Below the pieces are notes generated by a model. The model made no database searches, was not told the origin of the DNA, and worked only from the letters and a program-made list of their open reading frames with translations. A program made the position numbers and the translations under genes. Below are positions 16,913-21,999 of a stretch of DNA of 64,000 nt, piece after piece (within the stretch, counting starts at the first letter, position 1; each line of letters opens with the position of its first letter). Origin of the DNA: an uncultured delta proteobacterium. Its GTDB lineage: Bacteria > Desulfobacterota > Desulfuromonadia > Desulfuromonadales > BM103. The DNA is taken from the NCBI GenBank assembly GCA_963825575.1, contig CAWGUB010000018.1:179419-243418 (forward strand). Reading direction: 5' to 3'.

Positions 16913-17011
16913 TGTATCCTCCTGTTATCCTTATATGAATGTGTCGAAATTATTCAGCACTATACTGTTTGGATTTCCAGGAAATCCAGTATTCTGGTTC
17001 TGGATTCCCTT

Positions 17012-18181
17012 TTAAAGAGTCCGCACCTTGATGACCCCATCGATATCTTCCAGGGCCTGGATCAGCTCGGGGGTCGGTTCCTGCTCGATATCGATAATAT
17101 TGTACGCAGCGTCACCACGGCTCTTGTTGATCATGTCGATCACGTTTATGTTGCGATCGGCCAGAACCGAGAGAACCTGGTTAAGCATTTTAGGTACGTT
17201 CCGGTTGGAGAACGCCAGCCGGAAACCACCATTACGTTCAAGGGTGATGCTGGGGAAATTAACCGAATGCTTGATGTTGCCATTCTCCAGAAAATCAATC
17301 AACTGGTCGGCAACCATGATGGCGCAGTTTTCCTCAGCCTCTTCGGTGCTGGCACCAAGATGCGGAATCGAGACCACTTTATCGTGGCCCATCATCTCCA
17401 TGACCGGGAAGTCTGTGATGTATTTGCCGATCCGGCCATTATCAAGGCCCTTCAGGATAGCATCCGTATCGACAACCTTCTCGCGGGAAAGGTTGATGAG
17501 GGTCGCCCCGGGCCTGAAGCTGTCGATCAGGTCCTTGTTGATCAGGTTCCGGGTGGCTTCTAGAACCGGCAGATGCAGGGTGACGATGTCAGATTTGGCC
17601 AACAGCGACTGCATGTTTTCCATGCGTTCAACCTCACGCGACAGACGCCAGGCCGCTTCGACCGAGAGCGCCGGATCGTAGCCCAGCACCTTCATGCCGA
17701 GCATCAGACCGGTTTCGGCAACCTTGGAGCCGATGGCACCAAGACCGACGACGCCGAGGGTCTTGCCTTTCAGTTCGGTCCCGCCATAAGTCTTCTTGCC
17801 GCCTTCGACAAGCTTGTGGAGCTCTTCGGCGGTTTTGCCTGGGCCCTCATTCCTGACGAAGTCTATTGCACCGACAATGTCACGCGTCGAGAGCAACATT
17901 GCGGCAAGCGCGAGCTCCTTGACCGCATTGGCATTGGCGCCCGGTGCATTGAAAACCACAATGCCGCGTTCGGTGCAGTTATCAACCGGAATATTGTTGA
18001 CTCCGGCACCGGCTCGGCCGATCGCCTTGACCGAGGTTTCGATATCTTCCGGCTGCAGCACGTGGCTGCGCAGCATAATCGCATCAGGGGTGCCTATTTC
18101 GCTGGCAATTTCATATTTATCGAGAGAAAACTTCTCCAGACCTTTGACGGAAATCTTGTTGTAGGTACGAACCTTGTTCAT
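17012..18181 (-). CDS. serA: D-3-phosphoglycerate dehydrogenase, short form with C-terminal ACT domain
   Basis: ORF 17012-18280. The ATG at 18181 (MNKVRTYNKI) has GGAG 8 nt upstream. It has GLGAIGS, SRE and HLGASTEEAEEN motifs and lies directly upstream of serC. Confidence 0.8.
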   Translation of the reverse strand: MNKVRTYNKISVKGLEKFSLDKYEIASEIGTPDAIMLRSHVLQPEDIETSVKAIGRAGAGVNNIPVDNCTERGIVVFNAPGANANAVKELALAAMLLSTRDIVGAIDFVRNEGPGKTAEELHKLVEGGKKTYGGTELKGKTLGVVGLGAIGSKVAETGLMLGMKVLGYDPALSVEAAWRLSREVERMENMQSLLAKSDIVTLHLPVLEATRNLINKDLIDSFRPGATLINLSREKVVDTDAILKGLDNGRIGKYITDFPVMEMMGHDKVVSIPHLGASTEEAEENCAIMVADQLIDFLENGNIKHSVNFPSITLERNGGFRLAFSNRNVPKMLNQVLSVLADRNINVIDMINKSRGDAAYNIIDIEQEPTPELIQALEDIDGVIKVRTL

Positions 18182-20120: not shown

Positions 20121-21140
20121 TTAAAGTTTTTTCCCCGCCACTTTGGCGAACTCGGCGAGTTTCACCATCATCTTCTGAAACTCGGCAGGACGCAGTGATT
20201 GCGGGCCATCACTTGCTGCGGTTTCCGGGTGGGGGTGGACTTCGACGATCAGGCCGTCGCAACCGGCAGCCACGGAAGCGTAGCACATACTCGGCACCAG
20301 AGAAGCGTGACCGGTCGCATGCGAAGGATCGATAATAATCGGCAAGTGGGTCTGCTCTTGCAGAACCGGAATTGCAGAGATATCCAGAGTGTTACGGGTC
20401 GCTGTTTCAAAGGTACGGATACCACGTTCGCAGAGGATCACCCGCTGGTTGCCTTCGGAGAGGATATACTCCGCGCTCATGAGGAATTCCTGGATGGTCG
20501 TCGCCATGCCTCTTTTGAGCAGAATCGGTTTGTCGAGCGTACCCAGCATTTTGAGCAGGGCAAAGTTCTGGGTATTACGCGCTCCGACCTGCATCACATC
20601 AGCATACTTTGCAACCAGATCGACATCCCGAGGGTTAACAACCTCAGTTACAATTGGCAACCCGGTCGCTTCGCGAGCCATAGCCAACAACTTGAGACCA
20701 TCTTCCTCCATGCCCTGAAAAGAGTAGGGACTGGAGCGCGGCTTGAATGCGCCACCGCGCAGAACTGTGGCTCCGGCGGCCTTAACGGCATGAGCCGTTT
20801 CAAGGATCTGTTCCTCGCTCTCCACCGAACAGGGCCCGGCCATGACAATAAGCCGATCACCACCAACCGCTATGCCGGGAGCAATTTCAACAGATGTTCG
20901 CTCCAGCTTGACTTCCTTGCTTGCCAACTTGTAAGGCTTGAGAATCGGCACCACATTTTCCACGCCTGGCATCGATTCGATTGATTGCAGGACCGCCTTG
21001 CCGCGCTCATCGCCAACTGCGCCAACCACGTTGCGGGTTTCGCCGTGGATAACGTGGGGTTTATAACCCAGGTCCTTGATGCGCTGTTTGACATCGGCCA
21101 GTTCATGTTTGCTGGCGCCTTTTTTCATTACAATAATCAT
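20121..21140 (-). CDS. aroF: 3-deoxy-7-phosphoheptulonate (DAHP) synthase, type I-beta with N-terminal ferredoxin-like regulatory domain
   Basis: 339 aa with a Thermotoga-type N-terminal domain ([21 protein letters not shown]). The core has [27 protein letters not shown] and [16 protein letters not shown] lies 7 nt upstream of the ATG. Confidence 0.9.
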
Positions 21141-21225: not shown

Positions 21226-21270
21226 ACGAAAAAACCACCGGCGCCCCTGATCGAGCCTGCCCGTGGTTTC
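21226..21270 (-). terminator. terminator-like hairpin + T6 in the aroF 5' leader (candidate attenuator)
   Basis: The minus strand reads AAACCACGGGC-16 nt-GCCGGTGGTTT followed by TTTTTTCGTTTCGG. The stem is about 10 bp with one G-G mismatch. It lies between the leader ORF stop (21295) and the aroF start (21140). Confidence 0.5.
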
Positions 21271-21294
21271 GGTAGTTCTATCGACAGTTCATTG

Positions 21295-21381
21295 TCAACA
21301 GACTTCACCCCGGCCAGGCAGCCCAAAAAAACTGCTGAACCAAAAGGAAAAACCTGCAAACGACCAGCCTTGATATTTCAT
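21295..21381 (-). CDS. candidate aromatic-rich leader peptide MKYQGWSFAGFSFWFSSFFGLPGRGEVC
   Basis: The ATG at 21381 has GAAGGTGG 9 nt upstream. The 28 codons include 6 Phe, 2 Trp and 1 Tyr. It forms the 3' part of track ORF 21295-21654. Confidence 0.55.
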   Translation of the reverse strand: MKYQGWSFAGFSFWFSSFFGLPGRGEVC

Positions 21382-21471
21382 CCCGATGCCACCTTCATAA
21401 TATGTTACGGTGCTTCTTGGTATCAAAAAGCACAACGGAAAGCAAGCAAAGAATCGCCCACTGCTTTTTTC

Positions 21472-21510: not shown

Positions 21511-21586
<76 letters not shown>

Positions 21587-21596
21587 CTAGATAGAA

Positions 21597-21626
21597 GCCC
21601 CCACGATACCGACCGTGGGGGCTTTT
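21597..21626 (+). terminator. Rho-independent terminator after tRNA-Phe
   Basis: GCCCCCACG-ATACCGA-CGTGGGGGC followed by TTTTT. Confidence 0.75.
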
Positions 21627-21999
21627 TCTTTGCCATTTTACCGGCCTTTTTCACCTGTAAAATTCTCCGCCGCTTTTACCGTTTATGGTATTTATTGCAT
21701 AAGATGCTGGTAATTAAGGGTTTTTATGTTGCGCGTCATTGTCAGTTTTTTTATGATCAACCATGCCATACTGCTCTCCATGGCGCCCATCCGAGGCATA
21801 TTCGGACACACCAGGCGACCGCGGCCAAAGCAGATCGATCTTTTCGGGCCACTGTATTCACGGCCCTGATAATAGTGCGCCAGGAAGCTTTGCCAGCCCG
21901 GCAACCCCCCTGGTGAATTAGCTTCATCGTCATCCCTTGTCGGGGCTTCGGTCTCTGTTTCGGTGCCCCAACCAAGCCTGCGCTGGAGAGGAGGTCATT

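Follow-up and report, generated by a model that had tools for sequence, protein, structure and literature searches.

The leader that precedes the aroF-type gene for 3-deoxy-7-phosphoheptulonate (DAHP) synthase in an uncultured bacterium of the order Desulfuromonadales was analysed, based on a stretch of 64,000 nucleotides (nt) of contig CAWGUB010000018.1 (positions 179,419 to 243,418, hereafter the window) and on the corresponding regions of related genomes. We propose that this leader attenuates transcription of the DAHP synthase gene in the classical, ribosome-mediated way, through a leader peptide, and we put the probability of this reading at about 85%. On the minus strand, a promoter, a Shine-Dalgarno (SD) sequence, an open reading frame (ORF) of 28 codons, an intrinsic terminator (T1), a second terminator-like hairpin (T2) and the class Iβ DAHP synthase gene follow one another. 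The first-pass annotation of this DNA had marked the mini-ORF, its SD, T1, the second hairpin, the ATG of aroF and the neighbouring tRNA-Phe gene, and all of these elements are where it had placed them. Moreover, the layout of ribosome-mediated attenuation that it had recognised upstream of aroF is supported by the conservation of the ORF and by a covarying antiterminator. The pairing segments of the leader are numbered 1 to 6, with T1 as helix 3:4 and T2 as helix 5:6; computation established the parts, how they are conserved, that the helices exclude one another and that 2:3, 3:4 and 5:6 covary. The features are as follows, with positions counted in the window.

21445-21440 and 21425-21417, minus strand: conserved promoter, a cross-clade motif with -35 TTGCTT, a 17-nt spacer and extended -10 TGaTACCAA
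Near 21410, minus strand: predicted transcription start
21396-21389, minus strand: SD of the leader, GAAGGUGG, 7 nt 5′ of the AUG, read from the sequence
21381-21295, minus strand: leader peptide ORF of 28 codons, MKYQGWSFAGFSFWFSSFFGLPGRGEVC, with the stop UGA at 21297-21295
21337-21351, minus strand: core regulatory codons 11-15 (F-S-F-W-F; family consensus F-x-F-W-[F/Y/C])
21341-21312, minus strand: hairpin 1:2 from per-sequence folds, the putative anti-antiterminator and possibly also a pause hairpin
21319-21307, minus strand: region 2, the 5′ strand of the predicted antiterminator, GCCUGGCCGGGGU, codons 21-25
21274-21304, minus strand: hairpin B, which contains the stop codon of the leader and is enclosed by the antiterminator helix
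21267-21255, minus strand: region 3, ACCACGGGCAGGC, which is both the 5′ arm of T1 and the 3′ strand of the antiterminator
21270-21224, minus strand: intrinsic terminator T1, with the stem at 21270-21232 and a run of six U at 21234-21229, then CGUUU
21241-21195, minus strand: proposed, partly supported hairpin 4:5, in which the 3′ arm and U-tract of T1 would pair with the segment that runs through the 5′ arm of T2
21206-21168, minus strand: terminator-like hairpin T2 (21206-21176) with the U-rich tail UUACCUUUGA
21154-21148 and 21140-20121, minus strand: SD and coding sequence of the aroF-type class Iβ DAHP synthase, 339 amino acids, with the ATG at 21140
21511-21586, plus strand: tRNA-Phe(GAA) gene, the divergent neighbour of the leader and aroF

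Relatives were collected by scanning one genome per species of the Genome Taxonomy Database (GTDB) with the AroF protein, which yielded 80 loci with 77-96% protein identity, nearly all of them from Desulfuromonadales metagenome-assembled genomes (MAGs). At least 300 nt of upstream sequence was available at 75 of the 80 loci, which form the base for the counts of leader presence, and the alignment A1 comprises 74 leaders. The sampled loci are without Geobacter proper. The covariation of a helix was judged against 500 shuffles and against a control in which the partner strand was slid along the alignment. In the own-versus-cross duplex test, which used one representative for each of 31 clades, the pairing of a segment with its own neighbour was compared with its pairing with the neighbours from other clades.

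Conservation of the aromatic-rich leader

The first-pass annotation had called attention to a leader peptide that was rich in Phe, Trp and Tyr. Nine of its 28 residues are indeed aromatic (Y3, W6, F8, F11, F13, W14, F15, F18 and F19), and this is the highest aromatic fraction among the 419 ATG-started ORFs of 20-40 amino acids in the six frames of the window. The annotation had made its proposal depend on the mini-ORF keeping its aromatic codons in relatives, and this is what was found: an aromatic-rich mini-ORF that ends 140-245 nt 5′ of aroF is present in the window and at 73 of the 75 loci, which span several Desulfuromonadia families. Among the loci collected are that of Malonomonas rubra DSM 5091 (L074), a cultured bacterium that has the element, and those of MAGs with the labels Trichloromonas, Geoalkalibacter and Desulfuromonas and of one Pelovirga MAG, which NCBI places in Geobacterales. 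Additionally, a Desulfuromonadia-type aroF (77-79% identity) with the same leader was seen on MAG contigs labelled Pedobacter, Vibrio and Chloroflexota (L071, L066 and L077, respectively), which are probably mis-binned or mislabelled.

The start codon of the leader is mostly ATG, with GTG or TTG at a few loci, and an SD-like motif is retained at most of them. The consensus peptide of the family is M-x(6)-F-x-x-F-x-F-W-F-G-x-F-F-R-P-S-A-R-G, and within the ORF the lowest codon entropy was found in the core of codons 11-15. Aromatic residues make up 35% of the leaders compared to 4% of AroF; on average, there are 6.9 Phe codons per leader, while Trp occurs in 72 and Tyr in 56 of the 74 leaders. 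The share of UUU, the wobble-read codon, among the Phe codons is 79% in the leaders versus 39% in aroF. The promoter is also conserved, since the motif CTTGC(C/T)-N17-TGnTAnnnA was found 35-50 nt 5′ of the leader ATG across the clades. A simple consensus scan had offered a different promoter, TTGATA-18-TATTAT, which is not conserved; the extended -10 promoter takes its place.

T1 begins 24 nt past the stop codon of the leader, with an A-tract 5′ of its hairpin and UUUUUUCGUUU 3′ of it. In the window, it folds at -22.3 kcal/mol (z = -2.7 against dinucleotide shuffles; -21.8 kcal/mol when set beside 1:2 and 2:3), and the first three U of its U-run pair within the stem. Across the 74 leaders, T1 is 96.5% paired and is followed by a mean of 6.9 U in the 9 nt after the stem.

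Alternative helices, ribosome geometry and rival explanations

No convincing antiterminator pairing had been seen by eye in the first-pass annotation, and hairpin 1:2 had been missed as well. A mutually exclusive partner for T1, the predictability of which the annotation had named as a check, was nevertheless found in the pairing of 21319-21307 (region 2) with 21267-21255 (region 3), and it covaries. When RNAalifold was run on the portion of A1 that precedes the 3′ arm of T1, with the Phe codons omitted, it independently returned a helix between columns 77-86 and columns 158-166, i.e., the 5′ arm of T1; on the full alignment, it predicted T1 and T2 instead of the antiterminator. The 8-bp core of the 2:3 helix has 91.4% of its cells paired across the 74 leaders, compared to 25-53% with a slid partner. 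Both sides changed in seven of its eight pairs, whereas the shuffles gave 2.3 ± 1.1 and none of the 500 reached seven. Four of the five measures used were reached by 0 of 500 shuffles and the fifth, the number of further pair types, by 6 of 500. At the key pair, 78:165, 34 sequences have U-A, 31 have C-G and eight have U-G, and three loci (L070, L071 and L080) have a wholly different region 2 strand, CAUCGACCCG, which is matched by CGGGUUGAUG in T1. In the window, the 2:3 duplex has an energy of -21.6 kcal/mol compared to -13.4 ± 2.8 for shuffles (p ~0.007), no other part of the leader transcript is as good a partner for the 5′ arm of T1 as region 2, and the whole antiterminator conformation reaches -31.9 kcal/mol (z -3.8). 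The own-versus-cross test gave p < 0.0001 for both 2:3 and 3:4. On this comparative evidence, the predicted 2:3 antiterminator exists and is mutually exclusive with T1 through the shared 5′ arm of T1. Other partners were tried and rejected. A second GUCUG copy near the leader stop, considered as an alternative region 2 (columns 94-99 with 161-166), is not kept in the clades with the RPSARG peptide, and neither region 2 with the 3′ arm of T2 nor any other non-consecutive pair of segments had an own-versus-cross advantage (ten non-consecutive pairs in the 31 clades, p = 0.17-0.94).

The pattern of substitutions indicates at which level the ORF is conserved. Over codons 8-25, the column entropy is 0.78 at the first, 0.97 at the second and 0.76 at the third codon position, which means that wobble at the third position is lacking; codons 12 and 15 follow the pattern U-N-C, which encodes F, S, Y or C; and the conserved P-S-A-R-G stretch is coded by the antiterminator strand itself. 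Judged from these patterns, the conservation lies at the level of the RNA and of the codon class rather than at that of the protein. The lack of wobble and the coding of P-S-A-R-G by the antiterminator strand count against the view that the ORF is conserved mainly as a functional micropeptide or an arrest peptide. An arrest peptide of the TnaC/SecM type, in which a W...P..RG motif would stall the ribosome on free aromatic amino acids and not on a scarcity of charged tRNA, was considered because the conservation of the peptide reaches beyond the aromatic codons (consensus F.FW.G.FF.P..RG) and because tryptophan and proline are typical residues of arrest peptides. However, the conserved non-aromatic residues are coded exactly by the antiterminator strand and the 1:2 stems and their conservation is thus explained at the RNA level, while the three loci with the exchanged region 2 differ in their C-terminal peptide and yet keep the pairing. 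A biosynthetic gene, moreover, needs to be induced by scarcity and not by excess. We therefore regard an arrest peptide as very improbable.

The substitution pattern also bears on the idea that the ORF constitutes a small gene in its own right that encodes a hydrophobic micropeptide, with T1 as its own terminator and with aroF transcribed independently. Leader peptides may act in trans, as was described for peTrpL in Sinorhizobium (PMC7298713), and the peptide found here is hydrophobic and conserved. Its substitution pattern is not protein-like, however, a covarying antiterminator would have no role in a simple small gene, and the linkage to aroF is retained at the same 73 of 75 loci. The scan found no promoter-like site in the interval from T1 and T2 to aroF, and the distance between T2 and the SD of aroF is only about 25 nt; because of this short gap without a promoter-like site, the transcription of aroF must pass T2. 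This makes a separate small gene extremely unlikely.

The attenuator proposed here also involves a hairpin that would compete with the antiterminator. In the window, the outer stem of 1:2 pairs GGUU of codons W14-F15 with GGCC of region 2, and across the family it pairs the conserved Trp codon (UGG and the next U) with GCC of region 2; the inner stem is GCAGUUU:GGGCUGC and the loop holds Phe codons 18-19. Per-sequence folds gave 1:2 at ≤-7 kcal/mol in 71 of the 74 leaders (mean z -3.7; -10.8 kcal/mol in the window), and the own-versus-cross test gave p = 0.001. Because the 3′ strand of 1:2 (21324-21312) overlaps region 2, 1:2 and 2:3 are mutually exclusive. All of the attenuator-defining structural features that were tested were found, with the exception that the evidence for the predicted 1:2 hairpin is per-sequence only.

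The spacing of the leader was compared with the footprint of a ribosome. The distance between codon 15 (first base) and region 2 has a median of 20 nt (range 17-28), and that between the end of region 2 and the stop codon a median of 10 nt. A stalled ribosome protects approximately 12-13 nt downstream of its A site. The spacing thus fits a ribosome that, when stalled on the core, would leave region 2 free, and a ribosome terminating about 10 nt past region 2 would overlap the 3′ end of this region. The following course of events is proposed. Transcription would begin at the conserved promoter, near 21410, and a ribosome would then translate the 28-codon leader. When charged tRNA-Phe, and probably also charged tRNA-Trp and tRNA-Tyr, are plentiful, the ribosome would cross codons 21-25 and arrive at the stop 10 nt beyond; region 2 would be under the ribosome or recaptured in 1:2, T1 (3:4) would form and transcription would stop at the U-run, at approximately 21229, ahead of aroF. 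When charging is low, the ribosome would stall on the F-x-F-W-F core of codons 11-15 and keep hold of the 5′ strand of 1:2, and region 2, some 20 nt downstream, would stay free. It would pair with the 5′ arm of T1 as soon as this arm is made (2:3), T1 would not form and RNA polymerase would continue into aroF.

Termination at T1 and T2 might also be set by a trans factor that acts on the RNA, such as a TRAP-like protein, an uncharged tRNA as in a T-box, or a small molecule bound by an aptamer, with the aromatic ORF being incidental. T-boxes have been reported in Geobacter (PMC3766115), and the leader has more conserved structure than a minimal attenuator needs, i.e., hairpin B as well as a middle hairpin and a long-range helix that are described below. 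On the other hand, a search of Rfam 15, including Phe_leader, Trp_leader, the T-box and riboswitches, gave no match on the leader strand, either in the window (E ≤ 10) or in the six diverse relatives that were searched (E ≤ 1). A trans factor would also leave the 35% aromatic share of the leaders, the conserved translation signals and the geometry that fits a ribosome footprint unexplained, and we consider it highly improbable.

Several points weigh against ribosome-mediated attenuation and have to be set beside the evidence above. Translation of the ORF, stalling, the amino acids sensed and actual termination at T1 are what we infer from the parts. The leader is absent at two of the loci (L039 and L045) and at one more (L033) the ORF is degenerate. 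A fixed register of 1:2 (A1 columns 51-56 with 72-77) is 64% paired, which is no better than in the shuffles; a single column-wise register fails because the register varies between the clades. With a ribosome at the stop codon, no more than the 3′ end of region 2 is covered, and repression must hence depend in addition on the re-formation of 1:2 or on the relative timing of RNA polymerase and ribosome. A stall at Phe codons 18-19 is too near to region 2 to free it. Finally, the reason why UGG is invariant could be its part in the pairing and not the sensing of Trp.

The three exceptional loci look like natural variants of decay. At L045 (1360-1500), a remnant of region 2 is fused directly to the U-tract of T1, which amounts to a natural deletion of the terminator. 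At L039 (1306-1500), the leader is lost and the SD is poor. At L033 (900-1230), the promoter, T1 and T2 are retained and the degenerate ORF has 19 codons.

The second hairpin and its possible coupling to T1

A second hairpin had been noted in the first-pass annotation and is present at 21206-21176; its likely nature as a terminator and its possible coupling to T1 had been missed. In the window, T2 has an energy of -18.8 kcal/mol (z = -3.0 against dinucleotide shuffles) and a U-rich tail that is weaker than that of T1. Across the family, T2 is 86% paired, and T1 and T2 jointly have double changes in 14 of 20 pairs, which was reached by 0 of 500 shuffles; for 5:6, the own-versus-cross test gave p = 0.006. 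A stable T2 was found in 62 of the 74 leaders, 48 of which have five or more U among the 9 nt that follow the stem. The window has, at 361-400 on the plus strand (hairpin at 361-388), an ordinary intrinsic terminator, AAGGCCGACAGG-GAAA-CCUGUCGGCCUU then GUGUUUCGUUUU, that has the sequence style of T2 and a UUUCGUUU tail that resembles the tail after T1. The idea that T2 is a special binding site or a repeat element was dropped, as hairpins of the type AAGGCCG...CGGCCTT occur as ordinary terminators at other places in the window.

T2 is enclosed by a long-range helix between CGGGGAAGU at 21223-21215, just past the U-tract of T1, and ACUUUCCUG at 21162-21154, just 5′ of the SD of aroF (minus strand). 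This helix is 81% paired with double changes in seven of eight pairs, and the observed number of doubly changed cells was reached by 0 of 500 shuffles, in counts for which both strands are aligned in only about half of the sequences. A translational tier of control, in which the long-range helix would hide the SD of aroF only in the OFF state, was rejected, since the predicted accessibility of the SD was 0.22 in the OFF state versus 0.24 in the ON state (p = 0.79).

Two views of T2 have to be weighed, and they concern the second hairpin only, the attenuator itself being accepted in both. In the first, the six segments form a relay in which one ribosome stall disarms both of the serial terminators. 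In the OFF state, 1:2, 3:4 (T1) and 5:6 (T2) would form and a polymerase that leaks past T1 would be stopped at T2; basal expression would consequently equal one leak rate multiplied by the other. In the ON state, 2:3 would free segment 4, which would zip onto segment 5, starting from a small U-tract hairpin, before segment 6 is transcribed, and neither T1 nor T2 would form. In the second view, T2 is uncoupled from the leader and serves as a constitutive terminator for back-up or for reducing leakage, as a 5′ hairpin that stabilises the mRNA or as a site of processing, and 4:5 is a by-product of two conserved GC-rich arms.

Folding of the leaders bears on both views. In the window, 4:5, the tip of which is the small middle hairpin UCGUUU:AAACGA, reaches -23.9 kcal/mol (z = -3.35) versus -18.8 for T2. 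In folds up to the tail of T2, T2 forms in 56 of the 74 leaders in the OFF state (T1 allowed) compared to 24 when the antiterminator is forced, and in the latter case the freed 3′ arm and U-tract of T1 pair with the 5′ arm of T2 in 50 of the 74. This drop speaks against an uncoupled T2, although the 24 leaders in which T2 still forms speak for it, as do the 12 of the 74 without a stable T2. The effect depends on the 3′ arm of T1: in ON-state folds, T2 was found in 39% of cases with the native arm versus 96% with composition-matched shuffles, and the native arm abolished T2 in 37 of 62 sequences in which the shuffles did not, while the reverse never occurred. Again, this would not be expected if T2 were uncoupled.

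The comparative evidence is divided. The 4:5 hairpin is pairable at 84.8% across the family, compared to 37-62% in the slid controls, which argues for coupling. There is, however, no excess of compensatory pairs, as robust covariation of 4:5 is at chance level with six double-change pairs versus 5.7 in the shuffles. The own-versus-cross test gave p = 0.0002 for 4:5; most of this signal is due to the small hairpin that the U-tract forms with the segment immediately preceding T2 (p = 0.0003), whereas the part between the 3′ arm of T1 and the 5′ arm of T2, despite a complementarity of approximately -11 kcal/mol in every clade, gave only p = 0.03, which fits an uncoupled T2. When downstream sequence is added, moreover, the equilibrium fold of the window reverts to T2 and the long-range helix, and T2 has the generic terminator style of this genome; both of these are in line with an uncoupled hairpin. 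In favour of coupling, the apical bases of T2, GGGAGA, mimic GGGCAGA of the 5′ arm of T1 in several clades, and, as aroF has no room for a promoter of its own, T2 must be passable on induction. We judge the chances of an uncoupled T2 to be about even and offer the relay tentatively, as a possibility with somewhat less than an even chance.

Neighbouring genes and comparison with known systems

The product of aroF scores 501 bits against NF006421 (3-deoxy-7-phosphoheptulonate synthase) and aligns over its full length, including the N-terminal regulatory domain, with the class Iβ enzyme of Thermotoga maritima (1RZM). The AroF proteins are nearly without tryptophan, with two Trp codons in 74 genes of 339 codons; given this and the 4% aromatic share overall, the enzyme that feeds the aromatic pathway is itself poor in the products of the pathway. 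The adjacency of the tRNA-Phe(GAA) gene is conserved synteny, being found in the window and at 42 of the 60 loci scanned, and tRNA-Phe adjoins aroF even at both loci without a leader. The promoters of the leader and of tRNA-Phe must lie back to back within approximately 70 nt, and nothing indicates that the tRNA-Phe neighbour has a part in the attenuation mechanism. Directly 3′ of tRNA-Phe, a hairpin followed by a U-run (GCCCCCACGAUACCGACCGUGGGGGCUUUUUCUUU) lies at 21593-21634 on the plus strand and is most simply the terminator of this gene; the weak sub-threshold Rfam matches there (ctRNA_p42d, the trpB motif and others) are due to this hairpin and its U-run. The second most aromatic small ORF of the window, MNVSKLFSTILFGFPGNPVFWFWIPF at 16935-17015 on the plus strand, was considered as another attenuator and rejected, as it has neither an SD nor a terminator. 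It sits in antisense orientation between two minus-strand genes, in a gap rich in hairpins, and is probably not a gene.

If the attenuator works as proposed, the entry into the aromatic pathway would be controlled at two levels in these bacteria, allosterically through the N-terminal regulatory domain and transcriptionally through tRNA charging. The leader adds a well-supported cis-regulatory RNA family for Desulfuromonadia, a class that includes metal reducers and electroactive organisms and that comparative surveys of regulatory RNAs largely omit; one large survey did not analyse the delta-proteobacterial lineage (PMC3766115). The element can be used for annotating aroF leaders in MAGs and for explaining the expression of aroF in transcriptomes. 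If the relay were true, it would be a compact natural design that lowers the basal leak without losing induced output, which would be of interest to RNA engineers. A literature search of limited coverage found nothing that described the element in Geobacter, Desulfuromonas, Desulfuromonadia or delta-proteobacteria, and no leader peptide that controls tandem terminators.

The mechanism of the attenuator is familiar and not a new principle, and leader-peptide attenuation of DAHP synthase is already known in Corynebacterium (aroR). In Corynebacterium glutamicum, aroR, a Phe-Tyr-Phe leader, attenuates the aroF (DAHP synthase) operon and read-through increases when Phe is limiting (PMC11802643, which cites Neshat et al. 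2014). Both systems would thus have a leader with aromatic codons that attenuates a DAHP synthase operon, and the likeness that is documented is a functional analogy. Unlike aroR, which belongs to Actinomycetota, the leader described here is far richer in aromatic codons and is followed by a second terminator-like hairpin; the two are likely of independent origin.

The Phe-rich leader ORF, the 1:2/2:3/3:4 logic and the intrinsic terminator are shared with pheL-pheA and pheM-pheST of E. coli, which are represented by Phe_leader in Rfam (PMC3082878). In contrast to these, the present leader has no Rfam match, carries mixed Phe, Trp and Tyr codons, is found in Desulfuromonadia and precedes the DAHP synthase of the common pathway and not pheA or pheST. 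It also resembles trpL of E. coli and Salmonella, a four-segment switch in which segment 1 lies under the ribosome when it stalls and segment 2 is reached by the ribosome when it terminates; the stop codon of trpL precedes segment 2, whereas the present ORF crosses it and ends a median of 10 nt past it. In the his attenuator of Salmonella and E. coli (segments A-F), more than four segments form a chain in which each can pair with either neighbour and a single stall is passed along. The present leader is similar in having a chain of more than four segments, but the his leader has a single terminator (E:F) and the present chain would end in two (3:4 and 5:6), which is partly supported. Two serial terminators ahead of one gene are also known from tandem riboswitches and tandem T-boxes, in which each terminator has its own sensor, whereas the leader ORF would be the single sensor here. 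The tandem-terminator relay is thus the one possible feature that would set this element apart from known attenuators.

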